A stretch of DNA of 64,000 nucleotides from Alphaproteobacteria bacterium (lineage in GTDB: Bacteria > Pseudomonadota > Alphaproteobacteria > UBA828), in NCBI GenBank assembly GCA_965214705.1, contig CBDCCI010000002.1, forward strand, positions 2,240,001-2,304,000, written 5' to 3'. Below the pieces are notes generated by a model. That model worked only from the letters and a program-made list of their open reading frames with translations, was not told the DNA's origin and did not search any database. Below, piece by piece: positions 39,201 to 59,395 of this stretch (its first letter is position 1; each line of letters begins with the position of its first letter). Both the position numbers and the translations under genes were made by a program.

Positions 39201-40799
39201 CCCGGTCCCGCGCCCGGCTGATCTCGACGTAGAAGGTGGACTGGTCGGCAAGCGCGCCGTGGCTCGAATCCAGCACCGCGATCACCCCGTCCGCCGTGCT
39301 TCCCTGCGCGCCGTGAACGGTCGAGGTCCAGGCGTGGTCGATATGCCGCAGCTGCGGATCGTCCAACCGGAGCGACAGCCCCCGCCCGTCCGCCAGTCTG
39401 AACCGCACCCGGCCCTTGGCGATGCCCTCCACCTCGGCCCGCTCGCCGTTGATCAGGGACCGCTTCCTGTCGTTCCGGGTCCAACGGATCCGGTCGCCCG
39501 CGCGGACCTCCATGGGACGGGTCTCGTAGACGTCGAGCTGGTAGCGGATCGAGCCCGCCGGGCGGATCCAGCGCGGCTTTCCGTCGGGATGGAGAAGCAT
39601 CACCCGGTCGTAGTCGATCCCGGTTACCGTCAGGATCTCGTCCTTCCTCAGCCGGTAGTTGACCAGGTCCTGGTGGAACACTACCAGGTCGCCTTCCCGG
39701 TAGTTGCGTACGTCGCCCTTCTCGGTCCGGGTCAAGCCCAGGCTGACCAGGCGCTCGATCCCGAGCGTCTTCCCCCGAAGCACACCCTCGTCCGCCAGTG
39801 CTTCCCGGACGGTTCCGTTGATCTCTTCCCTCAGCGCATGGGTCGGCGCGACCAGGAGGGTGTTGTCGCGGGTGGCGGGGTCGAGCGCCAGCCAGGCCCG
39901 CGCCGCCTTCTCGCCCAGCTCTTCGTGCGCCACTTCGTGCACGCTGCTGCCGAGCAGCTCCACCGCCTCGGCTGGATCGCCCGCCAGAACCGCCTGCACC
40001 GCCGCCCGCAGCTCCGGGTTCCGCTGGCGCAGGATGTCGTCCATCGCCGCCGTCGTCATCCCCGCCCGCTGCAGCAGACGGAACGGCTGCCCGGCTTCCA
40101 CCGCGCGGAGCTGGCTGCTGTCGCCCACCAGCACCACGCGGGACGCGTCTATCTCGTCCGCCGCCCGCAGCAGAGAGCGCATCTGGTCGGTCGACACCAT
40201 CGAGGCCTCGTCCAGCACCAGCACCGCGCCGCCGAAGGTCTCCCTCAACGCCTCCAGCGCCTGTCCGTTGCCGCCCGCCGCCCGGCGGCGCGCCAGGAGC
40301 CACTGAAGCGTGCGGGCATGAATGCCGGTCTCGCGACCCAGCGCCGCGGCCGCCGCAGCCGAGGGCGCGAGTCCGAACACCGGCTTCTCCCCGGCAAGCG
40401 CCCGCACCTGGCGCAGCATGGTCGTCTTGCCGGTGCCGGCTCGGCCCTGCACGCCGACGATCCGGTCGTGCGCCAGCAGGATCGTGCGAACCGCCTCCTC
40501 CTGTCCCTCGGTGAGCCCGGCGCCGTCGAGACGGGCGGCCACGTCCCTCTCCCGGGCCAGCGCCGCGCCGGCGCCGATCCCGGCCTTCATCATGGCGATC
40601 GTGGACCGCTCCGCCTTCAGCGCCCGGTCGGTGACGAAGGCCCGGTCGGCGCGCCGCAGCTCGGCGTCGATCAGGTGCCCGTCGCGGACCAGCCAGGCGA
40701 TCGCGTCCCGTATCTCCCCGAGCGAATGCCGGCCCGGCGAATGGCCGAGAGCCAGCGCCTCGAGCTCGTGTTCGGAGAAGACCGATTGCCGTTCCTCAA

Positions 40800-42959
40800 C
40801 CCAGGTTGGCACTTTTGTCCTACCCATGTCCTTTATCATGTTGATGTAACGCGATATTTCTCTCGGCCGATTCCAACATGGCACTACATTTTGTTGGATT
40901 CTGTCAGTTCGGCAGGCGGGTCCTCGTGCGGTGGATGGCGGGTTCCACGCCCGCCGCCGAGGAGATTGCGGCTACCTCAGCGGCCGGGCGCGTGTCCTGT
41001 CGATTGACGATCAACGTGCCGTCGGTCTGGCGCAGGCGCGTGGTGATCCGCACCCAGGTCCGCATGCTCTCGCGGATCGATGCCCAGCACTTGTGGATGC
41101 CGCGCGCGGCCAGCCGGGTACGGATCAGATGCACGGCGTGGTAGGCCAGCACGGCGATCAGCAGGTGGGCCGCGATGCGCCGGTCGAGCTGGTGCCAGAT
41201 CGGGCGAAGGCCGAGCTCGGATTTTAGGCTCTTGAATGTCGCCTCGATATCCGTGATCCGCCAGTACGTCCGCAGGACCGTCTCGATATCCCAGTCGACG
41301 TGGCTGGTGCGCAGCACATAGGCACCGGCGCCCTCATCGGCCTCGTCGTATCGCGGCCTGCGCTTGAAGCGCACGGCGGTGGCATTGGGGCCGGTTTTCG
41401 CCTTCTCGACCGTGATCTCGTAGTGCCTGGCGACGGCGGAGAAGCGCTGCTTGAGGCGGCCTATGCTCTCCAGCACCTTGTCGTAGCGCTTGAGGCGGCG
41501 CTTGACCGGGAGGCCGCTGTGGAGCCTTTCCAGCGCCGCCTCGAAGCGGTTCCGCCTCAGGCCGATGATCGCGTTCTCGGCCTTCTTCTTGCCCTCGCTG
41601 ACGACGTAGAGCCGCGCCTCGCCGTCCTCGCTGGCAAGCCGCCAGGCCCGCACCTCGTGGCGCGCGCTGGTGATCAGCAGGGCCTCGGGTCCGCCCTCGG
41701 GCGGCGCAGGCCTGGCACCGCGGCTGACCGCGATCCAGTCGTAGCCCTGCTCGCCCAGCCACGCGATGTTTTTCTCGGTGGCGATGCCCGCGTCCATGAC
41801 CACCGTGGGCTTCGGCGCCGTGCCGCCGCACACCGCCTCGAGCCGCGCCAGCGCCTCGTGCAGCGTGCCCGGCTCGCTCACGTTGCCCGGCAGGATCTCG
41901 CAACTGCGCGGGAAGCCCGCGCCGTCGAGCGCCAGCGCCAGCGTGATGAGGGGACAGTCGTCGCGCTTCTGCTTGGAGCGCCCGAACCTGGGAAGCTCGC
42001 CGCCCGTGTGGCCGTGGTAGTGGACGTTGGTGAGATCGTAGAAGGCGATCGTCTCGGGCAGGTCGAGCAGCGCGCGCTCACGGTTGAACAGTTCCCTCTG
42101 GATGGCGGCCCGGTGGCGCCAGAGCAGGTCGCCGATGCGGTAGAGCGTCTTGCGCCGCAGCGCCTTGCGGTCGCCCTCCAGGCCCAGGAGCTCGGCGGCC
42201 GCGCTGTCGTGGCGGAGCCAGCGGCTGGTATCACGCTCGCTGGCGGGATGGACCATCCTGGCGACGATCAGCGCGCTCGCGATGCGCCCGTCTCGGCCTT
42301 TGATGCCAAGGCCGTGGAGGATGTCGGCGAAGCCAAGGTCGTCGAGGGCCTTGAGGCACAGGCGCTCGCAGCCGACGGTGCGCGGGTTCTCGTGCTCCAG
42401 GGTATCGAGGTCGACGGTGGCGATCTCGGGCTTGCGCGCCTCTTCCTGCATCGCCTCGACGCGGAACCCCCTGGCCCTGAGCTTGGCGACGATGTCCTCG
42501 GCTGCGGCCTGCACGTCCGGGACGGCTTGGAGCAGCGGCGGGCGGCCGTGCAGCAGCGCCTCGGCGAGTTCGGCCACTTCGCGCCATTTCTCCTTCGGCA
42601 CCGGATAGTCGGTGCCGAGGTTGAGGAGCGTGCGCTGCCTGACCTTGTCGCCGATGCGCTGGGAGAGCACGAGGCGATGGCTTCGGACGGGCTTGCCGTC
42701 GGTGGTGTGGGTCTTGGTTGCCCTGATGAACATGTCGCCCGTCGCGAGATTGTTGCGAGGGGCCAAGATTTGTCGGCTTGGGGTCTGGGGTCAAGGGAAA
42801 ATCGTCAATACCTAACAACTCCTGGCACTACAACGCGCTTCCAGCGCCTCAATTACACATATAGTGGCATCATCTCGGAGCTACCCCAATATGTGGTACT
42901 TCGGTCCGCAAAATATGGGCAGACCGGCATTGAGCAACCGGAAAAAGTGCCAACTTGGG
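40800..42959 (-). mobile_element. IS1634-family insertion sequence, 2160 bp
   Basis: Terminal IRs CCCAGGTTGGCACTTTT / AAAAGTGCCAACTTGGG; 4-bp TSD TCAA (40796-40799, 42960-42963). Confidence 0.9.
40904..42733 (-). CDS. IS1634-family DDE transposase
   Basis: MFIR..., KVRQRTLLNLG, FYDLTN, FGRSKQKRDD, VVMDAG, IEATFKSLKSELGLRPIWH. Confidence 0.9.
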   Translation of the reverse strand: MFIRATKTHTTDGKPVRSHRLVLSQRIGDKVRQRTLLNLGTDYPVPKEKWREVAELAEALLHGRPPLLQAVPDVQAAAEDIVAKLRARGFRVEAMQEEARKPEIATVDLDTLEHENPRTVGCERLCLKALDDLGFADILHGLGIKGRDGRIASALIVARMVHPASERDTSRWLRHDSAAAELLGLEGDRKALRRKTLYRIGDLLWRHRAAIQRELFNRERALLDLPETIAFYDLTNVHYHGHTGGELPRFGRSKQKRDDCPLITLALALDGAGFPRSCEILPGNVSEPGTLHEALARLEAVCGGTAPKPTVVMDAGIATEKNIAWLGEQGYDWIAVSRGARPAPPEGGPEALLITSARHEVRAWRLASEDGEARLYVVSEGKKKAENAIIGLRRNRFEAALERLHSGLPVKRRLKRYDKVLESIGRLKQRFSAVARHYEITVEKAKTGPNATAVRFKRRPRYDEADEGAGAYVLRTSHVDWDIETVLRTYWRITDIEATFKSLKSELGLRPIWHQLDRRIAAHLLIAVLAYHAVHLIRTRLAARGIHKCWASIRESMRTWVRITTRLRQTDGTLIVNRQDTRPAAEVAAISSAAGVEPAIHRTRTRLPN

Positions 42960-44227
42960 TCAAGCTGCCGCATGCAGCGGCGCACGATCGCCAGCGTCGA
43001 CGGGCCCTCCGGAAGCATGATCGCTTGCTCGGAGCGCGCCTCCGTGAGCGCAGTATCGAGGCTCAATTCCTGCGCGCGGTCTCGCCATAGCTCCTGCAGT
43101 TGAGCCCGCACCGGCTCCGCCTTCCGCTTGCGCGTCGCCAGCGTCGCCGCCTGCATCGCCGCCGCGCCGCGGTCCCAGCCCTTCTCGTCCACATAGGCCA
43201 GTATCTCGTGCCTGCGCGTCGAGAAGGCTCTCCGCAGTTCCCCGCCGTAGCCCGCAAGCTCGAAGCTCGGCAGCCGGCCCACCATCGCCGGCACGATCGA
43301 ATAGCCCTTCTCCATCAGCAGCCGCGCCAGCCGGTCTCGGTAATACGCTCCGATCAATCTTGCATTGCGGTGCAGCAGCGTCGGCTCCACGCTCTTCCAC
43401 CGCCCCTCCTCGTCCCGGGTCATGTTGGCGATCACCGCGTGAGTGTGGAGCTGCGGATCGAGGTTGCGGCTTGCGATGTGGCGGAACAGCGCCGCCACCA
43501 TGCAGGGCGCCTTCACCCGCGGCCGTCTGCCGGTGGCGGGGTCCCAGCCCCGGGTCTCCAGCAGCGAACCCTCGATCCAGTCGAGCGTCTCGCGCACCGC
43601 TGCATTGTGCGCGCGAATGACCATCCGGTCCCCGTGCGGGTGCTCCTCCGTCGGCAGAAGCGCCGCCAGCGACACTGACTTGGGCGCCGAGAACGTGATG
43701 TCGAAGCCCGGACGGTGCTCGTGCTGCCCGTCACGCAGCCGCCCGAGCCGCTGCTTCGTCCCGATCACGTGGCTCTGTAGAAGCTTCTCGAAGGCGCCCG
43801 CCGCGACCGGCTTGCCGGGATGCAATCCCAGGGCAACCGCGCCGCTGCCGTGCCAGGTGCTCGCGTTCCGGTGCTCTGCCCGCTTGGCCCGAAGGTCCGC
43901 CGCGTCCTCGCCCTTCCTCAAATAGTAGCCGCCGTCCTGGCGGAAATACTCCGACGTGGCGGACGAAGAGGTCAGGTTGCGGACCGTCGCGACCATGACA
44001 GGCGATCATAGCGGGCCGGTGGAGAGGTAGCGGTCAAAATACAACCCGAGTTGGGGCTTGCGCCAAACCATGGGTAATGGTGTTGTGATCATTGAAGACC
44101 CATCCTGCGCGCATTGCCGGGGCTGAGGTGCTGGTCGCGACCTCGGTCGAAGGACGCCAACGCTAGCATGACCTTTGCCCCGAACCTGCTCCGCGTACAT
44201 CTCCCACTGGTGTTCGGCGCCCAATGA

Positions 44228-44708: not shown

Positions 44709-45893
44709 ATGCCGAAGAGAAGCACCCTCCGCCTCACCACCCGCAGCGTCGCCGCCCTGCCGGCCACCGGCAGCGACGCCGTGCACTGGGACCGCGATCT
44801 CGCGGGCTTCGGCGTGCGCATCCAGCGCAACGGCCGCAAGGTCTACGTCGTCCAGTCGCGCGGGCCCGCCGGGCTGAAGCGCGTCACCCTCGGACCCGTC
44901 GCCGGGGAGGCAATCGACCAGCGACGCCGCGAGGCCGCCGAGGTCATCGACCGCATCAAGCGCGGCCTCGACCCGGTCCCGCCGGAGCCCGAGCCCGACC
45001 CCACCGTCGCCGACCTCGCGGAGCGCTGCATGCGCGCCTACGTGAAGGTCCACTGCAAGCCGAAGACGGAAAGCCTCTACCGGACCGCCATCGACCTTCA
45101 CATCGTCCCCGCGCTCGGCGCCATGGCGGTGAAGGACGTGCGCTCCAGCCACGTCATCGAATTCCACGACTGCCTGCGCGACACGCCGTCGATGGCCAAC
45201 CACCTCATACGCATGCTGTCGAAGATGTTCACGCTCGCGCAGACATGGGACCTCGTGCCCCGGGGCCGCAATCCCTGCCGGGCGGTCAACCAATACCGCG
45301 AGCACTCCCGGGAGCGGTTCCTGTCGCCCGAGGAGTACCGGAGCGTCGGCGCTTCTCTCAAGGCCGCGGAAGCCGAGGGCTGGATGTGGCCGCCGGCGAT
45401 CGCGGCGATCCGCCTGCTGATGCTGACCGGCTGCCGCAAGTCCGAAATCCTCACCCTTCGTTGGGACGACGTCGACCGCACGGCGGGCGAGTTCCGGCTC
45501 CGCGACGGCAAGCGTGGTCCGCGCATGGTGCCGCTGACCACGCCGGCGCTGAAGGTCCTCGACGGCATCGAGCGCGTCGACGGCAATCCCTGGGTCATCC
45601 GGAGCAGGAAGCCCGACATCCACCTGCCCGACCTGACCTACTACTGGAACCGCATCCAGGCCCATGCCGGGCTGGAAGGGGTGCGCATCCATGACCTGCG
45701 TCACAGCCACGCCTCGCGGGCGCTCGCGCTCGGCGAGAGCCTGACCATGATCGGCCGGCTGCTCGGGCATTCCAAGGTCGGCACCACCGCCCGGTATGCG
45801 CATCTCGTGCACGACGCCGAGAAGGCCGCCGCGGCGCGCACCGGCGACAGCATCGGCGCCCATCTCGCGCCGCAAGACGCCGAGGCGGCTTAG
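44709..45893 (+). CDS. Tyrosine recombinase/integrase A (P4-like arm-binding N-terminus)
   Basis: WDRDLAGFGVR arm domain; TGCRKSE, HDLRH, LLGH, TARYAH catalytic set complete. Confidence 0.93.
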   Translation: MPKRSTLRLTTRSVAALPATGSDAVHWDRDLAGFGVRIQRNGRKVYVVQSRGPAGLKRVTLGPVAGEAIDQRRREAAEVIDRIKRGLDPVPPEPEPDPTVADLAERCMRAYVKVHCKPKTESLYRTAIDLHIVPALGAMAVKDVRSSHVIEFHDCLRDTPSMANHLIRMLSKMFTLAQTWDLVPRGRNPCRAVNQYREHSRERFLSPEEYRSVGASLKAAEAEGWMWPPAIAAIRLLMLTGCRKSEILTLRWDDVDRTAGEFRLRDGKRGPRMVPLTTPALKVLDGIERVDGNPWVIRSRKPDIHLPDLTYYWNRIQAHAGLEGVRIHDLRHSHASRALALGESLTMIGRLLGHSKVGTTARYAHLVHDAEKAAAARTGDSIGAHLAPQDAEAA

Positions 45894-45905: not shown

Positions 45906-47102
45906 ATGGCAGTGCTGCAAACCAGGAAGCTCTCCAACCGCACCGTGGCGGCGCTCTCGGTCGAGCGCGACACGGTGTTCTGGGACCGCGAGCTCACCGG
46001 CTTCGGGGTCCGGGTGTATCCGGCCGGCGGCAAGGTCTTCGTCGCCCAGGCGCGCGGCCCCGACGGGCCGGACAATCGACACAAGCCGAGGCGGATCACG
46101 GTCGGGCGCCACCCGGTGCTCAACGCCGAGCAGGCGCGCCAGCGCGCCGCCCTCATCATCGCGCGGGTCAAGGCCGGGGAAGAGCCGGTGCCGCTGCCGC
46201 TCCCGGCGAAATACGCCAAAGGCCCGAAGGTGGCGGACCTGGCCAAACGCTATCTCGAAGACCATGTCACGGTCCGCTGCAAGCCGAAGACGCAGCGCAC
46301 CGCGCGCAGCGTGGTCAACCGCCACATTGTGCCGGCGCTCGGCAGGCTGCCGCTCCAGGCGGTGGAGCGGAGCCACGTCATGGCGATGCACGAGAGCCTC
46401 TGCGAAATCCCCGCGATGGCCAACATGGCGGTCGAGACCCTGAGCCACATGTACAAGCTCGCCCGGGGCTGGGACATGGTGCCCGAGGACTGCGACGACC
46501 CCTGCGAGTCCATCCCGCTGAACCCGAAGCGCAAGCGGGAGCGGTTCCTCACCGACGCCGAGTTCACCAAGCTCGGTCAGGTGCTGGACGAGGTCTCGAA
46601 CAATGGCAGTCAGGTATCGGCCGGGGCGATCACGACGATCCGCCTGCTGATGCTGACGGGCTGCCGCAAGAGCGAGATCATGAGCCTCCCCTGGAAGCAC
46701 GTCGATCTCGACCGGGCCGAGATGCGCATCGTCAACGGGAAGACCGGAGACCGCACGGTCCACCTGTCGCCGGCAGCGGTCGGCATGCTCGCGGCTCTGC
46801 CGCGCGAGCCGGGCAATCCCTGGGTCGTTCCGGGAGCCAAGCCGGGCACCCACATGGCCGACATCGACGGGGCGTGGCAGAGCATCCGCGCGAAGGCCGG
46901 ACTGCACGACGTGCGCATCCACGACATCAGGCATTCCTTCGCCTCCCGGGCGCTCGCGCTCGGCGAGGGGCTGCCGATCATCGGCCGGCTGCTCGGTCAC
47001 CGCAGGGTGGAAACGACCGCGCGCTATGCTCATCTCGCGCGTGACTCAGTGAGGGAATCCGCCGAGCGCATCGCCCTCAGTATCGCGGCCGATATCCTGT
47101 AG
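45906..47102 (+). CDS. Tyrosine recombinase/integrase B
   Basis: Same architecture; TGCRKSE, KTG, HDIRH, LLGH, TARYAH; 12 bp after integrase A. Confidence 0.93.
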   Translation: MAVLQTRKLSNRTVAALSVERDTVFWDRELTGFGVRVYPAGGKVFVAQARGPDGPDNRHKPRRITVGRHPVLNAEQARQRAALIIARVKAGEEPVPLPLPAKYAKGPKVADLAKRYLEDHVTVRCKPKTQRTARSVVNRHIVPALGRLPLQAVERSHVMAMHESLCEIPAMANMAVETLSHMYKLARGWDMVPEDCDDPCESIPLNPKRKRERFLTDAEFTKLGQVLDEVSNNGSQVSAGAITTIRLLMLTGCRKSEIMSLPWKHVDLDRAEMRIVNGKTGDRTVHLSPAAVGMLAALPREPGNPWVVPGAKPGTHMADIDGAWQSIRAKAGLHDVRIHDIRHSFASRALALGEGLPIIGRLLGHRRVETTARYAHLARDSVRESAERIALSIAADIL

Positions 47103-47160
47103 CCTCGCTTGCGATCTACCTGGGATGCGCACTTCAAAATCAGGACACTGATCATCGATG

Positions 47161-48588
47161 CTATTGCAGTCCCAGAACCATCGAACGCTTGGCGTCGTAG
47201 GTCTTGACGTAACCCCCTAGCAGGTGCCACTCGTCCCTCACCGATCTAGCCGGATCCCATCCACAAATCAGAAGCTCCGAAACGCCGTAGATAAACAGCA
47301 GGGTATCCGTAAGGAAGAGCACAACTGCCAAATCCGCGTAGTCAATGTCGGCCCCACTCCGATCATCAGGTCCGTGCGTGTAATGGTTACGACAATTCAC
47401 GGCGAGTCGAATCACGTCCTCTATTCGTTTCAAGCTATCTCGTCCAAAACGGTCCAGTACTATTTCAGCCCGATATTCCACGATACTGCGAAGCGGAATC
47501 TTCCTGCGAGAGCGGCCTAGCGGCTCTGTCTTGGGTTTGTCTTCACTTGGTAGAAGATCGAAAGTGTTGGCAGCCGATACGATACCGTCTTCGATAACCC
47601 GATCCGATGTTCCCGGGAAGCCACCGAGAAAGCGCAGGTTGGCGCTCTTTCGCTTTGCGTTGCCATTGCGCTTCAGCCACTTCTGCATCACATCCATGAA
47701 GTGATCGGGATGGCGTGATGCGTCGATCAGAGTTCCGCAGTCCCTTGCGCCGTCGGGAATTTCCGTCCATTCATTCGGACCGAACGCTTCGAGATCGCCG
47801 TCCGTATCTCGCCGGAAACCATCTTCGTCCAGCCGCGAGGTAAAGACCAGCACGTCTTTCCACCCCGGCACGTATCCCATTACCCATGCGAAGAACTGGC
47901 GGATTTCCCGCATCTTCTCCCACGCGTCCTCCAGCGTGGTCGGATCGCCATCGAAGTCCACCGCAATGCGCGGCGTGTCTTCAATGCTGCGCCCGAAGAA
48001 GTCAACCTGCATCGACCGCCCGACGTGCACGGTCCCCAGAACGGTTTCGAATCGCGGAAGGTAGTCCCAATCCCCCGTGAAGTAGGACACCATCGCCCCT
48101 CCCTTCACGAATTCACCTTTCAAGTAGTCGGGCCTTGTCCTCTTGATCGCGTCTAGGATGGCTTCATCCGGGTCATGCAAGTGACCGAATCTTTCGAACT
48201 TGTCGTGCGCGAATACGCTCGCCTCCGCTCCCTCCAGTGTGAATTGGATGCCCCGGATGCACTTCTCGTCGATGCCGACGTGCCGCGTCCCAAATAGCGT
48301 GTACCGGAAGGAGACGTCTCCGTGATGTATCGCGAAATCACCCCAGCTGGTCGTGCCTAACATCCCGCCTCGTACGCAGTCCAGCACCGACACTTTCCCG
48401 GCCTCCGAGAGGCCGTGCAGGCAACCTCCCTCAGCGATGTGGAAGAACTCGTCGTCCGCGATGCTGACGACGTTGCTGTCGAACAGATCGCCTCTCTTCA
48501 GCTTCAACTGTCCGGCGATTCGCCGTCCTTTCCCGGCGTCGAACAGCACCCCGATTGGACGCTTGTACTTGTCTTCTCCGCGCAACAT
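47161..48588 (-). CDS. ApeA-like protein with C-terminal HEPN domain
   Basis: RNHYTH (RxxxxH) near C-terminus; beta-rich N-terminus (LHGLSEAGKVSVLDC) like ApeA N-terminal domain; AAGGA RBS before ATG 48588. Confidence 0.7.
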   Translation of the reverse strand: MLRGEDKYKRPIGVLFDAGKGRRIAGQLKLKRGDLFDSNVVSIADDEFFHIAEGGCLHGLSEAGKVSVLDCVRGGMLGTTSWGDFAIHHGDVSFRYTLFGTRHVGIDEKCIRGIQFTLEGAEASVFAHDKFERFGHLHDPDEAILDAIKRTRPDYLKGEFVKGGAMVSYFTGDWDYLPRFETVLGTVHVGRSMQVDFFGRSIEDTPRIAVDFDGDPTTLEDAWEKMREIRQFFAWVMGYVPGWKDVLVFTSRLDEDGFRRDTDGDLEAFGPNEWTEIPDGARDCGTLIDASRHPDHFMDVMQKWLKRNGNAKRKSANLRFLGGFPGTSDRVIEDGIVSAANTFDLLPSEDKPKTEPLGRSRRKIPLRSIVEYRAEIVLDRFGRDSLKRIEDVIRLAVNCRNHYTHGPDDRSGADIDYADLAVVLFLTDTLLFIYGVSELLICGWDPARSVRDEWHLLGGYVKTYDAKRSMVLGLQ

Positions 48589-48756
48589 CAGTTCCTTCTC
48601 CACCACCTTCCGCACCGCCAGGCGCTAACGTGCCATGCAAGATCAACGGCGAGCGCTCAGTCAACTACCGCACGGGCTAACGGCATCTCACGCGCGCCTC
48701 TCATTTCGACCACCGACTCGTGCAGTGTGGCCAGCACTTCGCTCCCATAGTGCCGA

Positions 48757-51102
48757 CTATTGGGATGCGTGGACGAGTGGAGCGTCGCTGTTCGGCGGGT
48801 CCGCGGCGCCAACCTCCTCCGACGCTTGCTCCGGGAGCGAGTCGCGGACGGAGTCGATCGCCCCCTTGACCAACTGCTTGACGGCATCGATGAACCGTTG
48901 CACGTGAAGCATATCGTCAGACCCGCCACCAGGAATCGGAACCTGACGCTCGTAGAGCGCTTCGATTTTCACCTTGCGGTCGAAGGTGCTGCCACGGCCC
49001 CGGAAGGCGTATGCTTCATGCCACTGAGGTTGCGGCTCTTCTCGCAGTTGGCGGTTGCAGAACCGGACAAGCTCCCCCGATACGCATTCCTTCACTCGTT
49101 CGAGGATCGCCCTCTTGTCTTCGGCGCTTGGGTTCCCTTGCCAGCGTACCGGGCTCTCCAAGAAACGGGCAATCGCAAGTGTCATGTCGTTCAGCAGATT
49201 CGATACCGGACGTATGTGGTAGCCATCGTCGAAGCCCTCTGCATAACGACGGCTCACCGCCTTGACGCTCTGCCACGGGAGGGGCCGAAACTCGCTATGG
49301 CGCTCGAGGCCCAGCTGACCGCGCCATTGCATTCGGAAACTTTCGACTCCTCTGTGCAATGCGAGTACCAACAAGTCATCAGTGTATTCGGGGAAGGCCC
49401 GCACAGGAGCAGCTGGCGCCACAATCGAGGTGAGACGGTCGAACAGAGCGTTAAGTTCCGGAACGGCAGCCTTTGGATCGGCCTTCTGGAGCGAGCCGAG
49501 ATAGAAGGAGTTGCGCTCAAGATGCGCAAGCATGAACCGAGCAACGTCTGGTGTCATCGACTTGGCAATCTGGTGTTCTGCCACGTTGCGAACCCCGTCA
49601 AACGTGTAGTCCCGCTTCGCCTGCCAGCCTTGGATATTGTCTCCCTTTACGGCGTCCATACGACTAAACACCAGCATCGTCTTGATCGTCTGACCGGCGC
49701 CACCGATAGTCTCTAGAGCCTTCCCTCCCTCGAAGGAGAACGCCACATCGCCCTTGTGCAGGAGCAGGATCGCATCGCTCTCCGCGAACAGCGAGACAAT
49801 GTGATCTGGAACATCGGGGGTCATGTTGGCTTTGTGGCCGAGACCCTCTGTGTCGATGAGAACGAAGCGCGGCAGTTCGGCATGGGAAGACCAGGAAGGG
49901 GCAAATGGCCCGGCGACCCGGATACCGTTGACCAGCGGAGTGAGCAGCTTTCCCCACAGATCGCGATCGATTCCCGAGAAAAAGCGGACGGCGGTAAGGA
50001 ACTCTCGTCGACTATCGGGCGGCGCCGTCATCAGCCAAAGCCGGGGCCAGCCGGTTGTCGTCGTGCGAACACGACCGAACGGAATATTCTTGGACTTCTC
50101 ACGCAAATCGTCGAGCAATTCGCCGGCTAGGGTGGCGTAGTCGTCGGATTGCTCCGCCAGTTCCTGTATCCAGTCGAGAGCGGTGTTACGTTCATCGGAC
50201 GACAACGCGTCGAGAGGACCTAGCAACGTCTCGACTTCATTGCGAGCGGCGGCTGTGATCTCGCGTATGGCCCCAACGTAGGCACGGAGCTTGCTGGAGA
50301 GGGCCTCGGTCTCAGCGGGTGTGACCGCCAGGGCTGAAGCGTCCCCCTGATCTTCCTGAACCTCTCCAGTATCGTCATCCGGAATCTCGTAAGGGTCGAT
50401 GTCCACCTCTCCTCGAGGCCAATCGCCCAGCAAATACTTGAGGCGAAACCGCATATCGCTGCGTTCAAGAAAGACCTTGGCGATGTCGGCATCGGTCGCA
50501 TCGTCGACGGTGCGCAAAACCGCCCCGGAAAGGCTCTGGCGGACCTCGAAGTCAGCCTCTTCCTCAGACATGAAGGTGATCGCGGCCGAGTATTCCTCGC
50601 GACCCGTAACGACCTCGGTCTCGCAGGTTGTCGTTCGATTGACCGACGTTGACGGGAAGCGGTCGTAGACGGGATGCGAACCGATCAGTTGGCGTACCAG
50701 CGTTGTCTTGCCGGCGCCAGGAACACCGAGAAGCAGAATACGGGGATAGCCCTCGCCGCGTGGTGGAAAAGGCAGGTGCTCATCTCGAAGCGCCCGATAG
50801 TCTTGCCTCTTGGATTCAATACCGTCGTAGAAGATCTCGATGACCCGGGGGTCAAAGTGGGCCGCCGCCTTGGCGCGCGCGGCCGGCGAATGAAACGCCG
50901 GATCCGCGAGAAGGCGATTGAGCTGTTCGACCAATGCCTCAGCAACAGTTTTTTCGTCCGTCCCAAGCCCTTTTCGAACCTTCCGTCCGGGTTTCCCCTG
51001 ATTGGAGGGGTCCGGTCGCGATGGATGGCGAAAATCCACGATGAAGGAGCGACGACCGGGATTCTGCCTGACTGAAGCGGTAAACGGCGCCTTCATGACC
51101 AC
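48757..51102 (-). CDS. Large P-loop GTPase (dynamin/TRAFAC-like) with integrase-arm-like N-terminal domain
   Basis: G1 GVPGAGKT, G2 RTTT, G3 DTEG, G4-like SRMD; long helical insert and tail; N-terminal FIVDFRHP...RKVRKGLGTD...AEAL. Confidence 0.7.
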   Translation of the reverse strand: MVMKAPFTASVRQNPGRRSFIVDFRHPSRPDPSNQGKPGRKVRKGLGTDEKTVAEALVEQLNRLLADPAFHSPAARAKAAAHFDPRVIEIFYDGIESKRQDYRALRDEHLPFPPRGEGYPRILLLGVPGAGKTTLVRQLIGSHPVYDRFPSTSVNRTTTCETEVVTGREEYSAAITFMSEEEADFEVRQSLSGAVLRTVDDATDADIAKVFLERSDMRFRLKYLLGDWPRGEVDIDPYEIPDDDTGEVQEDQGDASALAVTPAETEALSSKLRAYVGAIREITAAARNEVETLLGPLDALSSDERNTALDWIQELAEQSDDYATLAGELLDDLREKSKNIPFGRVRTTTTGWPRLWLMTAPPDSRREFLTAVRFFSGIDRDLWGKLLTPLVNGIRVAGPFAPSWSSHAELPRFVLIDTEGLGHKANMTPDVPDHIVSLFAESDAILLLHKGDVAFSFEGGKALETIGGAGQTIKTMLVFSRMDAVKGDNIQGWQAKRDYTFDGVRNVAEHQIAKSMTPDVARFMLAHLERNSFYLGSLQKADPKAAVPELNALFDRLTSIVAPAAPVRAFPEYTDDLLVLALHRGVESFRMQWRGQLGLERHSEFRPLPWQSVKAVSRRYAEGFDDGYHIRPVSNLLNDMTLAIARFLESPVRWQGNPSAEDKRAILERVKECVSGELVRFCNRQLREEPQPQWHEAYAFRGRGSTFDRKVKIEALYERQVPIPGGGSDDMLHVQRFIDAVKQLVKGAIDSVRDSLPEQASEEVGAADPPNSDAPLVHASQ

Positions 51103-51123
51103 GAGTCCTATGATGTTCCAGGG

Positions 51124-51183
51124 TGTGCCATACTACTGGCCGAGCACCATATCGTCAAGCCGAATTTGGCACACGCTGGCACA
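51124..51183 (-). promoter_or_regulatory. Sigma70 promoter for the GTPase flanked by three TGGCACA boxes
   Basis: Minus strand TTGACG (51158-51153)-N17-TAGTAT (51135-51130); TGTGCCA 51124-51130, TGGCACA 51167 and 51177. Confidence 0.65.
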
Positions 51184-51268
51184 ACGCTTCACCTAGGCTG
51201 TCGATGACGGGCTGTTCAGGAACAAGATGCCGACCGGCGCGATCGACCGCGCGGAATTGGCGCTGGGG

Positions 51269-52357
51269 CTCCAACCGCACCGTGGCGGCGCTCTCGGTCG
51301 AGCGCGACACGGTGTTCTGGGACCGCGAGCTCACCGGTTTCGGGGTCCGGGTGTATCCTGCCGGCGGCAAGGTCTTCGTCGCCGAGCAGGCACGACAGCG
51401 GGCCGCGCTCATCATCGCGCGGGTCAAGGCCGGCGAGGAGCCGGTCCCGCTGCCGCTCCCGGCGAAATACGCCAAAGGCCCGAAGGTGGCGGACCTGGCC
51501 AAGCGCTATCTCGAAGACCATATCGCTGTCCGCTGCAAGCCCAAGACACAGCGCACCGCGCGCAGCGTAGTCAACCGCCATATCGTGCCGGCACTGGGCA
51601 GGCTGCCGCTCCAAGCGGTGGAGCGGAGCCATGTCATGGCCATGCACGAGAGCCTCTGCGAAATCCCCGCGATGGCCAACGTGGCGGTCGAGACGCTGAG
51701 CCACATGTACAAGCTCGCCAGGGGCTGGGACATGGTGCCGGAGGACTGCGACGACCCCTGCGAGTCCATCCCGCTGAACCCGAAGCGCAAGCGCGAGCGG
51801 TTCCTCACCGACGCCGAGTTCACCCGCCTCGGGCAGGTGCTGGACGAGGTCTCATGCAACGGCAGTCAGGTATCGGCCGGGGCGATCACGACGATCCGCC
51901 TGCTGATGCTGACGGGCTGCCGCAGAGCGAGATCATGGCCCTGCCCTGGAAGCACGTCGATCTCGAACAGGCCGAGATGCGCATCGTCAACGGGAAGACC
52001 GGCGACCGCACCGTTCACCTGTCGCCGGCGGCGGTCGGCGTGCTCGCGGCCCTGCCGCGCCAGCCGGACAATCCCTGGGTCGTTCCCGGCGCCAAGCCGG
52101 GCACGCACATGGCAGACATCGACGGGGCTTGGCAGAGCATCCGCGCGAAGGCCGGGCTTCACGACGTGCGCATCCATGACATCCGCCACAGCTTCGCCTC
52201 CCGGGCGCTCGCGCTCGGCGAGGGGCTGCCGATCATCGGCCGGCTGCTTGGTCACCGCAGGGTGGAGACGACCGCGCGGTATACGCATCTCGCGCGCGAC
52301 TCGGTCAGGGAGTCCGCCGAGCACGTCGCCCTCAGCATCGCCGCCGATATTCTGTAG
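51269..52357 (+). pseudogene. Decayed near-copy of integrase B
   Basis: Missing start; 81-bp in-frame deletion (equivalent to 46047-46127, CGCC microhomology); 1-bp deletion in TGCRKSE near 51924. Confidence 0.92.
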
Positions 52358-52487
52358 GCGCTTCAATCCGACCTGCATGAAAGCACGGCATATGCGGGGT
52401 TCCCCATTCGCCCGCCTCTCCGAACTTGCCAGGAACACCGTCGCCCGATAGCCTAAGTTGACACATCAGCAGGCTTGGAACTCTCCC

Positions 52488-53672: not shown

Positions 53673-53858
53673 ATGCCAAAGGCGAATTCAGGTCGGATTG
53701 TTGTCGCTGTAGACCCGGACCTCAAGCGGCGCCTCTACAGCGTATTGGCCATGGAGAACTCAACCCTTAAGGACTGGTTTATTCGGTCCGCAGAGAACTA
53801 TATCGACGAGACACACAAGCTTACTCAACACTCCAATTCGGAAGGACCCAAGGAATGA
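53673..53858 (+). CDS. Small ribbon-helix-helix regulator (61 aa)
   Basis: SGRIVVAVDPDLKRRLYSVLAMENSTLKDWF; ATGA overlap with methyltransferase. Confidence 0.7.
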   Translation: MPKANSGRIVVAVDPDLKRRLYSVLAMENSTLKDWFIRSAENYIDETHKLTQHSNSEGPKE

Positions 53859-55504
53859 ACTTCCTTGATTCTCAGACCGAACAAAAGCTGCGTGGCGGAT
53901 ACTACACCCCACCTGATCTTGCCACTTTTCTCGTCCGATGGATTGCCGCCATCAACCCCAAAGAAATTCTCGAACCGAGTTGCGGCGATGGCATTTTTCT
54001 CGAAAAACTAGCTCAGCACCTGCATGAGCCAATCGTCACGGGATTTGAGATCAACAAAGAGGAAGCTGCAAAGGCGTCAACACGTGCCACCGAATCCGGT
54101 CTCAAACACGCTAACGTAACAAACACAGACTTCCTTGGTTGGGCCATTGACGCATTGCAAGGCAGGCAAGAGCGATTCGATGCCATCCTTGGAAATCCCC
54201 CATTTATTCGTTATCAGTATTTGCCAAGACTATTTCAGCTTCGATCCGAAGAGATTTTCTCCAAGCTGAATTGCAAATTCACGAAGCACACAAACGCATG
54301 GGTTCCGTTCATCCTTGCATCATTTGCTTTGCTCCGCCCTGGTGGTCGCCTCGCGATGGTAGTTCCCGCCGAAATCATTCACGTCATGCACGCCGGTTCT
54401 TTGCGCGCCTACTTGGGAAAAAATGCAAAGAAACTAATCATTATCGACCCCGAGGAACTTTGGTTTCCGGGAACTCTTCAAGGTGCAGTCCTGCTCCTCG
54501 CACAAAAGCGCGATGCCTCACGGGACGACGCAGAGGGACTTGGCATTTTTCCGGTACGTGGCCGTGATTTCGTTGCTCGCAACCCTGAAAAGATCTTCAA
54601 CACTCCACACCCAATCAATGGAAGGACGGTTGAAGGCAAGTGGACACGAGCACTTCTGGATCCCAAAACCCGCGAGCTTCTTGATGGACTTATCGATGAC
54701 AACGCGGTTCGTCGTTTTTCGGACGTGGCTGCAGTCGATGTTGGCATTGTAACTGGTGCCAATAAGTTCTTTCTTGTCGAAGACCATACAGTGAAGAAAT
54801 TTGCACTGGACGCATGGGCCCATCCAATGTTCGGGAGAAGCGCACATTGTCCCGGCATAATCTACGATGACGCTCAACATCAAGCGAACGCGATCAACGG
54901 AAATCCGACAAATTTTGTTTGGTTTAGAGATCGAAGCGTTGAACAAAGCCCGCGAGGAAAAGCATACATCAAATATGGCGAACGCCAGATGTTACATACT
55001 CGGTACAAATGTCGCATTCGAGACCCGTGGTACTCAGTGCCATCTGTCTACGCAACCGAAATTGGAATGCTGAAACGGTCTCACAGCGCCCCCCGTTTAG
55101 TTCTCAACAAACTTCGGGCATTTACTACTGATACAGCCTATCGTATCAAGGTCAAGGTCGGAACCGCCAACCAACTGGTATATCTCTTCGTGAACCCCTT
55201 AACTGCATTGAGCGCAGAACTGGAAGGTCGTCACTATGGAGGAGGTGTGCTCGAACTGGTGCCTTCCGAAATTGAACGGCTTCTAATCCCACGACCGAAG
55301 AAGCTAAGGGCTAACGTTAACGGTTTGGACAAGGCGGTGCGAAGGCTGTCCATGGAGTTAGTCCTCGAACGTCAAGGCGAGGTGGTACTGGGCGCTTCCG
55401 GGTTAACTCCATCTGAACAAGCTCAAGTAATAGACGGCTGGAGAAAACTCAGAGACAGACGGCATCGTACTTCATCACCGCACACTAGTCGATCTCGAGG
55501 ATGA
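53855..55504 (+). CDS. N6-adenine DNA methyltransferase (gamma class, Eco57I/TaqI-like)
   Basis: GGYYTP, EPSCGDGIF (motif I), GNPPF (motif IV), C-terminal target-recognition region; visibly lower GC than host genes. Confidence 0.9.
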   Translation: MNFLDSQTEQKLRGGYYTPPDLATFLVRWIAAINPKEILEPSCGDGIFLEKLAQHLHEPIVTGFEINKEEAAKASTRATESGLKHANVTNTDFLGWAIDALQGRQERFDAILGNPPFIRYQYLPRLFQLRSEEIFSKLNCKFTKHTNAWVPFILASFALLRPGGRLAMVVPAEIIHVMHAGSLRAYLGKNAKKLIIIDPEELWFPGTLQGAVLLLAQKRDASRDDAEGLGIFPVRGRDFVARNPEKIFNTPHPINGRTVEGKWTRALLDPKTRELLDGLIDDNAVRRFSDVAAVDVGIVTGANKFFLVEDHTVKKFALDAWAHPMFGRSAHCPGIIYDDAQHQANAINGNPTNFVWFRDRSVEQSPRGKAYIKYGERQMLHTRYKCRIRDPWYSVPSVYATEIGMLKRSHSAPRLVLNKLRAFTTDTAYRIKVKVGTANQLVYLFVNPLTALSAELEGRHYGGGVLELVPSEIERLLIPRPKKLRANVNGLDKAVRRLSMELVLERQGEVVLGASGLTPSEQAQVIDGWRKLRDRRHRTSSPHTSRSRG

Positions 55505-56678
55505 AAGAGTCTTGCTCCTCGTCGTCGAGGTAAAGGAACAGGGTACGATTAAGCAGATCTTCCCGAGCGACGTACGGCCGAACGACGGCGCCCCAGTGCA
55601 GGCTCGTCATGCTGTTTCGTTGCTCATACGCTGCGGTGTCGGTGCGAGTATTGTGGGAAATTCGTAGAGAAAAAACGCCGCAGTCAACGTCACGAATTAC
55701 GAGCCGGAATCGTGCTTCCGCCCTTTCAATATGTCGGCGCCGAGGGGCCGCGTCAGGGTTCCAATCGAGCCTATCAAATACTTCGTCACGAAAATAATGG
55801 CGTTGATCGATGTCACGCATTGCACCTTGAGACAGCAGCATTGAGCCAGTCGGATTAGTGTTTGGACCCGTCGGGATATTCAAATCTCGGCGTGTCAATG
55901 GTCGGCTCTCCCACATTAGAGACCAGCGCTCCCTTACCGATTCCGCGACATTTGCCAGCCGCACCTCACCATTATCCTCTCCGTTCTGTGCGACTGAGAA
56001 GGGCTCCGGGCGGGGATGTGATATTCGTCGCGGTCTAAGTGGCATTCTGGGGATTGAATCTAAGCTTGGGTCTCTTGCTACCGCACTAGGTACCGGTTGA
56101 GATCTGGTGCTTTCGTCAATTACCCGTCCTGCGTCGAGTAACTCTTGTATCAGCTCTCTGTTGAGAATAGGAAACACGTGGTCAGGGTAATCCGCCATCA
56201 TTTCTTCATATTTCGCATCTACATCGTCAATAAGAGCAGCTCCCCGTGCGTTGTTGCGGTCAATTGTAAGACAAAGGCTGGCCTCAATATTCGAGTTCAA
56301 ACCACCGATAGTAAGATTTGCACTACCAACGATGATTCGCGCCTCATTGGGATTGTACGAAAAGTAGATTTTTGGATGAAAGATGGCGGTACGCGTTCCT
56401 GTATCGACAGCGTAAATGGAGCACCCCATTTCTACGGCTAACTGTAACCCCTGTGCTGAGGTGATTCCATTTCTTATTCCGGCCAAAATTGTAGTCTGAT
56501 CGGCGACACGGAGTAGAGATTCACGAACAAGAGATAGTCCACCATGAGTCATAAATGCAACGCTGATGACTATTCGGTCTGGGTCTGGGATGTCGAGCAG
56601 AGTCGTAACGGCGTCCAGATGAGTGGATGCCGTTACACCCTGGAGCAATAGTTCGCCCCTAATGGTCATTTGGTTCAC
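55485..56678 (-). CDS. Phospholipase-D-family restriction endonuclease (BfiI/NgoFVII-like)
   Basis: ISVAF, FHPKIY, GSANLTIGGLNSNIE single PLD motif; separate C-terminal domain; convergent with the methyltransferase. Confidence 0.8.
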   Translation of the reverse strand: MNQMTIRGELLLQGVTASTHLDAVTTLLDIPDPDRIVISVAFMTHGGLSLVRESLLRVADQTTILAGIRNGITSAQGLQLAVEMGCSIYAVDTGTRTAIFHPKIYFSYNPNEARIIVGSANLTIGGLNSNIEASLCLTIDRNNARGAALIDDVDAKYEEMMADYPDHVFPILNRELIQELLDAGRVIDESTRSQPVPSAVARDPSLDSIPRMPLRPRRISHPRPEPFSVAQNGEDNGEVRLANVAESVRERWSLMWESRPLTRRDLNIPTGPNTNPTGSMLLSQGAMRDIDQRHYFRDEVFDRLDWNPDAAPRRRHIERAEARFRLVIRDVDCGVFSLRISHNTRTDTAAYEQRNSMTSLHWGAVVRPYVAREDLLNRTLFLYLDDEEQDSFILEID

Positions 56679-57280
56679 TCCATCGACATTTCATCGGAAG
56701 GGAGGGCGGAAGCGACCCAAGGGAGTTCAACACCAATGTGGTTCGCGCCGTGGAAACAGCTATTCGCGATGTACGTCGCGAAAGGGTGGCATCTTCGCGT
56801 GTCTGAGGCACCGATGTAATTGTTTCCATACGGTTTTCCAGGCTCCTCGTTACGTCACGACACCGAGCCGCGTGACCTTCGCGTAAGCATACAGGAAACC
56901 ACCCAGTTCCAAGACCAACGCACGCTGTGCTGCTCCTGTCGTCAGGGCCTCTCCTGACGGGCGGGGTCGCTGCGTACACGCAACACGGCCCATGTCGAGT
57001 CTCGCCGGTAACCGGCGATCCCGCTTCGTTTCCGTCCGTCATTCCCCCGCCACCGTAGAGTCCTCCGGCGTTTCGGCCAGCGCGTGCCCTCGGCTTGGGG
57101 GCGTTCGGTCAACTCCAGTCTCTCCCGGTTCGCGGCAACCAGGACGGGCAGATCCTCGGGGAACCTTGTCCGCGCTACTCCGTCGGGAGTCGAGCCGAGC
57201 GGACGGAGGGCGTTCCGGCAGGGGCTCGGAGAAAGCCGCCGAGACGGCCCGGAGCGGTTCCTTTCCGACGGGAGCATGAC

Positions 57281-58198
57281 ATGACCACGAACGCGAAACT
57301 CACTCGCGTCATCGCCGACGCCCTCATAGGCGCGTACGGCGAGGAAGCCATCGAGTGGCTCGAAGACGGCGGGCGAGCGAACGTCGAGCGCATCCTCGCC
57401 GAATGGCGCACCGCGATCGAAGAGGGCGGCTGGATCGAGCGAATCGAGGACGTGCTGGTCCTCCGGGCGCTCCGCCACGAGGCGCACTGGGTGGAGGTGC
57501 TCGGCGGGCCGGACGCGGAAACACTCATCCGCGAGCTCGTGGACGAGGACTGGCGCGCACGGGAAGTCGAGACGGCAACGCGGATCGGCGAAATCTTCGC
57601 GCACGAGCTCCTTCGTGGCGACACGGGGGAGCCGTTCGAGTCCATCGAGTACGACTGGCGTGAGCACGGGTGCGCGATCCGCGGCGAGGACGACGAGCAG
57701 CGGTGGAACGCGGCGGCCCCCCTCTCGGGTGCCGAAACCCGTATCGAGGCGTGTCTCATCGAGGCGCGCTACATCGAGCGCCGGGTGCCGTTCGTCGACC
57801 TCCCGGGAAAGGTCCGCCAGGCGAAAGCGGCGGCGGACGCGGGGGACGAGAGCGGATGGACGCCGGTCTCGGACGGTCCGGTGTTCCGGTATGTCCGGGC
57901 CCTGCGCGAGGACGGGGTGGAGCGGGTCATTCCGCCAGACCTTCGGCTTCGCACGCTCTACACCGTCGAGCTCGTCTGCGCGCCCGGCCGCTCGGTGGTG
58001 CTCGTCGAGGAGGGGCTCCGCGGCCGGCTCGAGGACGTCGCCTCGAAGGCGGTCGAGAGCGCGCGGGTGAGCGAGCGGTGGCGGGTCGAGCCCGGCGAGC
58101 CCATCTTCGTCAGGCGCATGCGCTACGACCTCGACGAGTGGTCGGACCTTCCCGTGCCGGAGGGGTACCGGATGGACCCGTTCCGCGACTCCGGCTGA
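57281..58198 (+). CDS. Hypothetical acidic protein (305 aa)
   Basis: GGGAG RBS, host-like codon usage, no recognised motif. Confidence 0.6.
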   Translation: MTTNAKLTRVIADALIGAYGEEAIEWLEDGGRANVERILAEWRTAIEEGGWIERIEDVLVLRALRHEAHWVEVLGGPDAETLIRELVDEDWRAREVETATRIGEIFAHELLRGDTGEPFESIEYDWREHGCAIRGEDDEQRWNAAAPLSGAETRIEACLIEARYIERRVPFVDLPGKVRQAKAAADAGDESGWTPVSDGPVFRYVRALREDGVERVIPPDLRLRTLYTVELVCAPGRSVVLVEEGLRGRLEDVASKAVESARVSERWRVEPGEPIFVRRMRYDLDEWSDLPVPEGYRMDPFRDSG

Positions 58199-58622
58199 GC
58201 CCGGTGTCCGCCGCGGACCCCACCGCCAGGAAGCCAAGACCGGCTCCGGCCGGTGGAACCGGGGGTGCCCGCCCACATCACCGAGGAACACCGCCGCGCT
58301 TGGACCGCCCGCGCTCTTGCGACACGCCGGACTCCGCCCGTCGCCCGCTACACGATCAGTTGCGTGCAGCTCCCACCCAGCCGGTTTCGGGGCGACTTGC
58401 ATCGCCCTGCCTGGAAAGCGCTCGCACCCGGCAACCGTTCCGGAACGATTCCGGCTTCCAGACTCCTCCCTGATGCAGGGTCTTGAGGCTACGGGAATCA
58501 GGTTCCTCCTTGGAAGTCTCTTCAGATGTTGCGTAAGCGGTATCGGGCCCCCATACTTCCAGCGGATCTGATTTCGGGGCTGACTCTCCGCCTTGACCAC
58601 GAGCCACACAGGAGAGATCGCG

Positions 58623-59048
58623 ATGACAGATTCGATTTTGGCATCTGGCGACGGTGTCGCTGTTGCTTCGGTTGAGATCCCAGCTTCTGAGGGAGCCGCC
58701 CCGGCTCCGTCTGAGCCGGCCCCCATGCGACGCTGGCCGGACGATGAGAAGGCGCGGATTGTCTCGGAGAGCTTTGAGCCGGGCTCTTCGGTTGCGGCGG
58801 TCGCGCGCCGCCATGGCGTCAGCGATACGACCCTGACCAAGTGGCGGCGGCGCGCGCGGGAGGGAACTCTTCCGGGCGCTCGGATTGGTGGCTCTGCACC
58901 GCCATTTGTTCCCGTGGTGGTTGATAGCGTGACGTCCGAGCGGACGGTGGCGATCGAGGCGCTAGGCGTGGTCGTTCGCCTTCCGGTGGAGAGCGCGGTC
59001 GATCGGATTGTTGCGGTGGCCTCGGGCCTGGGCCGGGCGTCGTCATGA
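58623..59048 (+). CDS. tnpA: IS66 TnpA (HTH)
   Basis: RRWPDDEKARIVSESFEPGSSVAAVARRHG. Confidence 0.9.
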   Translation: MTDSILASGDGVAVASVEIPASEGAAPAPSEPAPMRRWPDDEKARIVSESFEPGSSVAAVARRHGVSDTTLTKWRRRAREGTLPGARIGGSAPPFVPVVVDSVTSERTVAIEALGVVVRLPVESAVDRIVAVASGLGRASS

Positions 59049-59395
59049 TCGCGGCCCCCTCGCTTCGCATCGTGTTGGCGACGCGGCCGGTTGATTTTCG
59101 TCGCGGCCACGACGCGCTTGCGGCGACGGCGGCGGGGGAGCTGGACCTCGATATCTATTCCGGGGTGATCGTGATCTTCCGCTCGCGCCGCGGCGACAGG
59201 CTCAAGCTCCTTGCGTGGGACGGCAGCGGTCTGGTGATGACCTACAAGCGTCTGGAGCAGGGCCGCTTCGCCTGGCCTCGGATCGAGGATGGTGTGATGC
59301 GCCTTACGAAGGGCCAGTTCGAGGCCCTCTTCGAGGGTCTGGACTGGCGCCGGGTGAAGGCCCGCCCGGTTCGCCGCCCGCTGGCGGCGGAGTGA
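59045..59395 (+). CDS. tnpB: IS66 accessory protein TnpB
   Basis: PVDFRRGHD, DRLKLLAWDGSG, KRLEQGRF. Confidence 0.95.
   Translation: MIAAPSLRIVLATRPVDFRRGHDALAATAAGELDLDIYSGVIVIFRSRRGDRLKLLAWDGSGLVMTYKRLEQGRFAWPRIEDGVMRLTKGQFEALFEGLDWRRVKARPVRRPLAAE

Follow-up and report, generated by a model that had tools for sequence, protein, structure and literature searches.

The systems described closest to the locus analyzed here are ApeA, a defense protein, and several GTPases of the dynamin-like or TRAFAC kind. ApeA has been characterized as a one-protein system: it assembles into ring-shaped oligomers and is activated by a ligand in its own pocket; once activated, it cuts tRNA anticodon loops, and it protects alone (10.64898/2026.01.26.701840). 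Eleos (LeoA/LeoBC) is presented as a defense operon of two dynamin-like genes whose P-loop mutants lose defense (10.1101/2022.05.11.491447), and DynA is another dynamin-like protein in defense (PMC8844932). The DO-GTPase/GAP1 systems comprise TRAFAC GTPases with a Walker B/G3 glutamate for which a role in conflict systems is predicted; a GAP1 partner is conserved, GTPases are paired in 38% of cases and N-terminal zinc ribbons occur in 60% (Kaur et al. 2020, PMC7159879). We examined a 64,000-nucleotide (nt) stretch of the genome of an Alphaproteobacteria bacterium of the UBA828 lineage (assembly GCA_965214705.1, contig CBDCCI010000002.1, positions 2,240,001 to 2,304,000), hereafter the window, in which two adjacent genes encode a dynamin/mitofusin-like GTPase and an ApeA-family HEPN protein. 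Their positions, with amino acids abbreviated aa and open reading frame abbreviated ORF, are as follows.

48757..51102, minus strand: dynamin/mitofusin-like GTPase gene, a 781-aa ORF from GTG
47161..48615, minus strand: ApeA-family HEPN gene, a 484-aa ORF from GTG
48589..48756, no strand: intergenic gap between the GTPase and ApeA genes, 168 nt, measured from the revised starts

The homologues recovered for each show that both genes are real. Alignments with relatives place the likely start of the GTPase at ATG 51096 (779 aa, as in record P0003) and that of the ApeA-like protein at ATG 48588 (475 aa, as in record P0123). A sequence-only reading of this DNA had described the pair as two co-oriented genes in an integrase cargo slot near a restriction-modification system, and that description holds: an intact integrase gene, int_B, and its degenerate copy, int_B', flank the pair, and a methyltransferase gene lies 2.7 kb away. 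The same reading had gone on to propose a new two-gene anti-phage system in which the GTPase gates an RNase effector. Because the GTPase and ApeA families do not co-occur, a two-gene system is not supported, and there is consequently no new sensor-gates-RNase architecture to claim from this locus. We consider it probable that each gene is a single-gene cassette independent of the other, and that the two merely happen to occupy the same small cargo slot, bounded by integrase genes, within a mobile-element mosaic.

The evidence comes from comparison of loci in both directions. A scan of species genomes (one genome per species) yielded 59 loci encoding GTPase relatives at 31–87% identity. None of the 59 contains an ApeA homologue (tblastn, E ≤ 1e-3), and in 52 of them the sequence downstream extends for 1.1 kb or more. 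ApeA was likewise absent from four further GTPase loci, of which one is on a viral contig, two are on plasmids and one is the paralogue in this genome, bringing the count to 0 of 63. Clustering of all flanking ORFs across the 59 loci, with antisense ORFs inside the GTPase gene set aside, gave no conserved neighbor of any kind; the largest true neighbor cluster spans eight loci, and the two of its members that were scanned are generic ABC ATPases. The closest relative of the GTPase, L001 (87% aa and 85% nt identity), loses similarity approximately 70 nt before the GTPase stop codon, and the 464 nt available downstream of its GTPase are unrelated to ApeA. The neighborhood check suggested by the sequence-only reading therefore turned out negative, even beside this near relative, which is an outcome that reading had itself named as refuting its proposal. 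In the opposite direction, no GTPase was found at three close loci of the ApeA sub-family in the metagenome scan or at three distant ApeA loci among 401 genomes of the class (0 of 6 overall, four of which show little or nothing of the side on which it would be expected). Gating of the RNase by the GTPase is further disfavored by the self-contained nature of ApeA, as portrayed in its source.

On the Agrobacterium plasmid NZ_CP072139.1 (L102), only 12 nt separate the gene for a GTPase of 35% identity from a downstream ORF of 598 aa (8652–10448), which has no Pfam or PADLOC match and was detected by tblastn in no other collected locus. The product of this ORF may be a branch-specific partner.

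The GTPase belongs to a large family. Searches returned 1190 matches at E ≤ 0.001 among 7999 scored candidates, and the family counts 985 representatives of 50%-identity clusters (311 at E ≤ 1e-30), conserved end to end. Its predicted domains map to the window as follows, with strands and helices of the models written as E and H followed by residue numbers.

50818..51096, minus strand: N-terminal domain, residues 3-95, basic (full-length and separate domain models)
49408..50763, minus strand: G domain, residues 114-565 (invariant columns; VIA alignments cover 114 to ~565)
50089..50346, minus strand: helical insert between G2 and G3, residues 253-338 (model helices H262-294, H302-318, H320-338)
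48838..49380, minus strand: C-terminal helical region, residues 575-755 (VIA alignments extend as far as model residues 756-759)

Conserved columns bear out the assignment of motifs G1 to G4 made from the sequence. G1 corresponds to G126-T134 (GVPGAGKTT), G2 to T157-T159, G3 to D417-T-E-G420 and G4 to S480-R-M-D483. Five residues (G126, K132, T158, D417 and G420) do not vary across an alignment of 90 sequences, of which at least 90% also retain D483. The family consensus for G4, [ST][RH]MD, is unlike the canonical [NT]KxD. An AlphaFold model built from 90 sequences reached a predicted local distance difference test score (pLDDT) of 91.4 and a predicted template modeling score of 0.89, and this predicted fold contains the dynamin-like helical insert between G2 and G3 that had also been proposed.

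Structure comparison places this model within the dynamin superfamily. The best Foldseek matches all belong there (E 2e-7 to 1e-4), led by SynDLP (E 2e-7) and followed by Campylobacter DLP1/2, IniA, dynamin, MxB and EHD2. VIA returned Z scores of 15.2 for Fzo1 (281 residues, 5.0 Å), 14.7 for a Campylobacter DLP, 14.6 for mitofusin 1, 13.5 for IniA and 12.6 for BDLP, in alignments spanning 224–383 residues. Several of these continue beyond the G domain to take in the C-terminal helices, which align with the helical bundles of Fzo1, IniA, BDLP and EHD2. By its model, then, the GTPase has a dynamin-superfamily fold made up of a large G domain and a helical bundle, as in bacterial dynamin-like proteins and mitofusins, and family members presumably use GTP. 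It differs from those proteins in several respects: identity is only ~10–15%, G4 reads [ST][RH]MD, and the sequence shows no sign of a hydrophobic paddle or transmembrane segment (no hydrophobic segment was found, the highest 19-residue Kyte-Doolittle mean being 1.16). It also carries an additional, putatively integrase-type N-terminal domain, is encoded by a stand-alone gene, and has a patchy, accessory distribution.

Sequence-based resources give this family little recognition. Pfam Dynamin_N (PF00350) reaches only E 0.18 in the window GTPase but is recorded for many relatives of 46–50% identity; otherwise, Pfam, NCBIfam and PADLOC return sub-threshold P-loop matches only. No longer, fused forms turned up in a search for them, although this counts as weak evidence, and the literature searched gave no description of the family, a weak negative. 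The family is thus unnamed in Pfam, NCBIfam and PADLOC v2, and it is an uncharacterized variant of the dynamin-like kind.

Among the defense-associated GTPases, Eleos shares with our protein a dynamin-superfamily GTPase found in defense islands. Its two-gene layout, however, is not matched: there is no conserved neighbor in 59 loci, the genome's only second GTPase copy sits on another contig, and the LeoA model matches only GTPase residues 412-499 (E 0.031). The layout of DynA does not fit either. The Walker B glutamate described for DO-GTPases has a counterpart in the DTEG of the window GTPase, but the conserved downstream partner, the pairing and the zinc ribbon noted there do not (no such Pfam family at E ≤ 1).

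The N-terminal domain had been read from the sequence as resembling the arm-binding domain of phage integrases. The outline of that claim, three strands plus a helix, was recovered in the models: strands E9-13, E20-31 and E37-45 are followed by helix H51-66 and two short helices, and modeling the domain separately (pLDDT 88) gave the same three-strand-plus-helix unit as the full model. The more specific identification with known arm domains fared less well. Comparison with an Arm-DNA-bind_3 alignment (32 sequences) gave a probability of 2.5%, no better than the reversed control, and hhalign against single integrase sequences was near noise. Foldseek with the domain model returned nothing at E ≤ 1e-3. 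A wide VIA search ranked N-terminal domains of enolase type highest (Z 5.7); AP2 domains score below these (Z 3.6–3.8), and the arm domain of lambda Int (1z1b_A) aligns weakly (Z 3.8, root-mean-square deviation 2.3 Å over 51 residues). The protein atlas offered no usable match for residues 3-100.

A possible connection to integrases emerged instead from DUF6538. This family, an N-terminal domain of tyrosine integrases, is matched weakly by 7 of 27 GTPase family members (best E 0.024), and hhalign of an N-domain profile of 90 sequences against 25 DUF6538 segments collected from genomes gave a probability of 73% (P 3.1e-5 over 34 columns), compared with 1% (P 0.05) for the reversed control; a profile of 27 sequences gave 58.7%. 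The match spans the end of strand 2 and strand 3 and runs into the helix. Among 20 DUF6538 frames tested, 14 also contain Phage_integrase (E ≤ 1e-3), with DUF6538 ahead of it; in one further frame, Int_N and SAM_5 are the only such domains, and the DUF6538-integrase layout recurs in L066. An integrase-type N-terminal domain is therefore moderately supported by sequence profiles, and the domain may act as an arm-type DNA-binding domain. The likeness to integrase N-terminal domains (DUF6538 and the fold of lambda Int and AP2) lies in the predicted three-strand sheet on a helix at the very N terminus. The differences are that the window domain is joined to a GTPase rather than a recombinase and has no Arm-DNA-bind_3 match.

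About 20 of the 150 listed GTPase representatives start near residue 100 of the window protein, as do five Rhodococcus plasmid matches. The N-terminal domain consequently seems to be an optional module, truncated gene calls being the alternative. A GTPase sub-family of ~640–670 aa without this domain occurs on Rhodococcus plasmids (L103, H7-H11), in one case 5.5 kb from BREX brxL.

The second gene had been described as ApeA-like with an intact RxxxxH motif, and both parts of that description are upheld. Its product matches ApeA_NTD1 (PF18862) over residues 31-246 with 26.7 bits against a cut-off of 25.5 (E 4.7e-6). HEPN_Apea (PF18739) scores 20.5 bits, under its cut-off of 24.4, although many other proteins of this sub-family have it on record. 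The RxxxxH motif is invariant across 22 aligned sequences, as are the columns C408, R409, T413, H414 and G415.

47374..47391, minus strand: HEPN RxxxxH motif, R409-N-H-Y-T-H414 (alignment of 22 sequences)

The search found 132 relatives of this protein. PADLOC, for which no full match had been anticipated, returned only Cas13-ApeA at E ≤ 1 (E 0.058), and the sub-family profile had no match at E ≤ 1 among solved structures. Taken with the sub-cut-off HEPN_Apea score, these results indicate a divergent branch of ApeA. From its sequence, the gene is an additional member of the known ApeA kind: it shares the two-domain layout, the invariant RxxxxH and, in other loci, a stand-alone gene. It differs in its divergent sub-family, the HEPN_Apea score and ~30 fewer residues. 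The missing residues lie ahead of the HEPN domain, at ~365-370 of the window protein P0002 (window ~47500-47520); a relative of 90% identity, P0124, lacks them as well, and the other 20 aligned relatives keep them. No member related to this ApeA sub-family turned up when viral contigs were scanned.

What surrounds the GTPase elsewhere bears on its function. Neighbors vary widely among loci. Taking the nearest ORF of at least 150 aa on each side, and dropping L048 as a duplicate of L047, we found a specific PADLOC match (E ≤ 1e-10) beside the GTPase in 13 of 58 loci, a figure that has no matched control rate. ABC-ATPase, sigma-54 activator, cysteine-desulfurase, ThiF and weak DrmD/mad2 matches were left out as unspecific. 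The matches include DruE, BrxA, JetD, DUF4238 (twice), PD-T4-5, PD-Lambda-2_A and a type I methyltransferase, as well as a DndH-like protein, PDC-S13, PDC-S68, PDC-M14A and PDC-M41B. Pfam neighbors comprise integrases, HipA, MqsA, HigB, PIN, AbiU2, SLFN/AlbA_2, MTaX1, NYN and relaxases, along with plain housekeeping genes. Some relatives adjoin MobA relaxase, RepB or DUF2857. Eleven plasmid records carry GTPase relatives, with copies close to BREX brxL and to a DGQHR/radical-SAM cluster, and one copy on a viral contig has a VapE-type primase gene 1 kb away; a phage collection gave no match. When the window integrases and relaxase were used as tblastn queries, relatives appeared in 1 to 3 of the 59 GTPase loci per query, which is no consistent link.

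The family is patchy: of the 401 genomes examined from this class, 7 have it, each belonging to a different genus. The genome analyzed here holds a second copy on another contig (G000:C1:333685-335925; L065:8671-10974), which encodes 767 aa at 35% identity, lies ~440 nt downstream of an intact TrwC relaxase-helicase gene and has a YAcAr/SLOG-domain gene 2 kb farther on. The overall pattern is that of an accessory gene of defense islands or mobile elements. Because neighbors are often integrases, toxin-antitoxin genes and known defense genes, the GTPase is a credible candidate for single-gene defense or mobile-element conflict.

Several observations weigh against our reading of two independent cassettes, and most of them would favor a two-gene system, possibly confined to this lineage, in which the GTPase senses foreign nucleic acid through its N-terminal domain and gates or boosts the ApeA RNase. 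The genes are adjacent and co-oriented at a distance of 168 nt, and a simple scan of the gap found neither a promoter-like nor a terminator-like site, so that co-transcription is possible. Their G+C content (GC) at third codon positions (GC3) is nearly equal (0.685 and 0.678) and unlike that of the integrases (0.79–0.92) or the restriction-modification module (0.48–0.50); the two genes therefore probably arrived jointly or came from a single donor. The unit is also intact in other sequencing runs: it is contiguous in a contig of run X5 (47137-51298, 22 differences, ~99.5% identity), and runs X6 and X7 hold 100%-identical pieces of both genes. Moreover, the upstream side, on which a GTPase gene would be expected, is usefully covered at only two of the six ApeA loci: 6 kb is available for L062 and 2.3 kb for L061, a little less than the 2.34 kb of the gene itself, compared with 50 nt for L060 and 1.5 kb for each of the three distant loci. 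X6, however, contains the identical int_B-ApeA junction, so the recurrence in X5 to X7 apparently reflects the same island and not independent co-occurrence, and the shared orientation, terminator-free gap and equal GC3 suggest joint arrival rather than joint function. The absence of partners at 63 GTPase and six ApeA loci, together with the different downstream sequence of the 87%-identical relative, argues against a functional unit. In run X10, a GTPase relative of 95–98% identity over its longer pieces remains similar through the gap and ~160 nt of the ApeA frame (to window 48430) and then turns unlike, in one contig at a depth of ~2; linkage may already be broken in this close relative. 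ApeA has a sensor pocket of its own and protects alone, according to its report (10.64898/2026.01.26.701840), and we regard a two-gene system as highly unlikely.

Other points weigh against a defensive role for the GTPase: the count of 13 loci with defense neighbors considers one nearest ORF per side and stands without a control rate, and both GTPase copies of this genome lie near TrwC relaxase genes, which also fits mobile-element biology. The protein could instead serve its carrier element, handling DNA in integration, transfer, partition or exclusion through an integrase-derived DNA-binding domain, with no immune function. The resemblance of the N-terminal domain to that of integrases, the relaxase genes beside both copies, the MobA, RepB and DUF2857 neighbors of some relatives and the 11 plasmid records are all consistent with this. 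We nevertheless think such a service role rather unlikely, as we found no conserved linkage to transfer, partition or integrase genes, many copies lie between housekeeping genes or beside defense genes, and one GTPase sub-family lacks the N-terminal domain. Housekeeping membrane remodeling, of the DynA, IniA or BDLP type, would agree with the best fold matches, which are membrane-active dynamin-like proteins and mitofusins. A gene confined to 7 of 401 genomes of the class and located here in a low-GC island, whose product has no hydrophobic segment (top 19-residue mean 1.16) and bears an integrase-type N-terminal domain, is a very poor candidate for that function, and we give this explanation hardly any credence.

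Under the favored reading of two independent cassettes, each protein would work on its own. By analogy with the ApeA proteins studied, the ApeA-family protein would be a self-contained abortive-infection RNase that oligomerizes, uses its own pocket to detect a small molecule produced by infection and cleaves the anticodon loops of tRNAs with its RxxxxH site. For the GTPase, we infer DNA binding, a role in defense or against mobile elements, and all of the mechanism that follows. Its basic, DUF6538-like N-terminal domain would most likely tether it to nucleic acid, where the G domain and helical bundle could drive nucleotide-dependent self-assembly or remodeling on the target, and it would act without a partner gene. 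We tentatively speculate that the ~760-aa family might be a new kind of single-protein immune or anti-mobile-element GTPase, a dynamin/mitofusin-like mechanoenzyme placed directly onto foreign DNA by a DNA-binding domain borrowed from tyrosine integrases and thus a bacterial, DNA-directed counterpart of Mx without a separate effector. Whatever its role, the analysis exposes a large GTPase family in which a predicted dynamin-like engine is combined with an apparently integrase-type front domain. If the GTPase protects alone, it would widen the few known dynamin-like cases in bacterial immunity (Eleos, DynA) and provide a tractable model for how such GTPases recognize invaders.

The surroundings of the pair are those of a mosaic island. 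The pair has a GC of 57–60% in surroundings of ~68–70%, and both cargo genes sit between direct-repeat copies of one integrase gene. The flanking features are as follows.

45906..47102, plus strand: int_B, intact tyrosine integrase, left direct repeat bracketing the cargo (Pfam Arm-DNA-bind_3, SAM_3, Phage_integrase; repeat analysis)
51123..52451, plus strand: int_B', degenerate int_B copy (Pfam and repeat analysis)
44709..45893, plus strand: int_A, third, more distant integrase paralogue, directly upstream of int_B (Pfam; repeats of 63–75% identity)
51130..51158, minus strand: promoter-like site upstream of the GTPase gene (consensus scan, 9/12 positions matched)
53855..56678, no single strand: restriction-modification-like module, with a type II methyltransferase (plus) and a PLD-family ORF (minus), ~50% GC

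The repeat in int_B' (51269-52357) is 92–97% identical to int_B at the nucleotide level, forming a direct repeat of ~1.1 kb. The copy lacks 74 nt in the arm-domain region (int_B 46050-46123), and a 1-nt deletion shifts its frame ahead of the catalytic domain. The locus thus has putative defense cargo enclosed by two direct-repeat copies of an integrase gene, and by inference recombination could swap or delete that cargo. The repeat analysis gave no short att-like repeats beside the integrase copies, and the 64-kb window has no tRNA gene. The promoter-like site is weak, one being found where shuffled sequences give an expectation of 1.4.

The methyltransferase matches PADLOC MTase_II at 1e-189 and has an M.Eco57I-like C-terminal domain. 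The PLD-family ORF, with weak PLDc_2 and ZacB matches, is convergent with it and overlaps it. This methyltransferase/PLD module has ~50% GC and was probably carried in by the broken integrase copy as its cargo. Farther right is an IS66 transposase gene, and between that gene and the PLD-family ORF is an 838-aa ORF (56942-59458, minus strand, ~69% GC) with no Pfam or PADLOC match, which may be genuine or may be an antisense artefact caused by high GC. To the left of the cargo, on the minus strand, are a TrwC relaxase-domain ORF (42881-43996) and a TraI-like helicase ORF (36391-40884), split by a DDE transposase gene (40904-42766). At a paralogous genomic locus, relaxase and helicase form one 992-aa ORF, and the window relaxase therefore looks interrupted by an insertion sequence.

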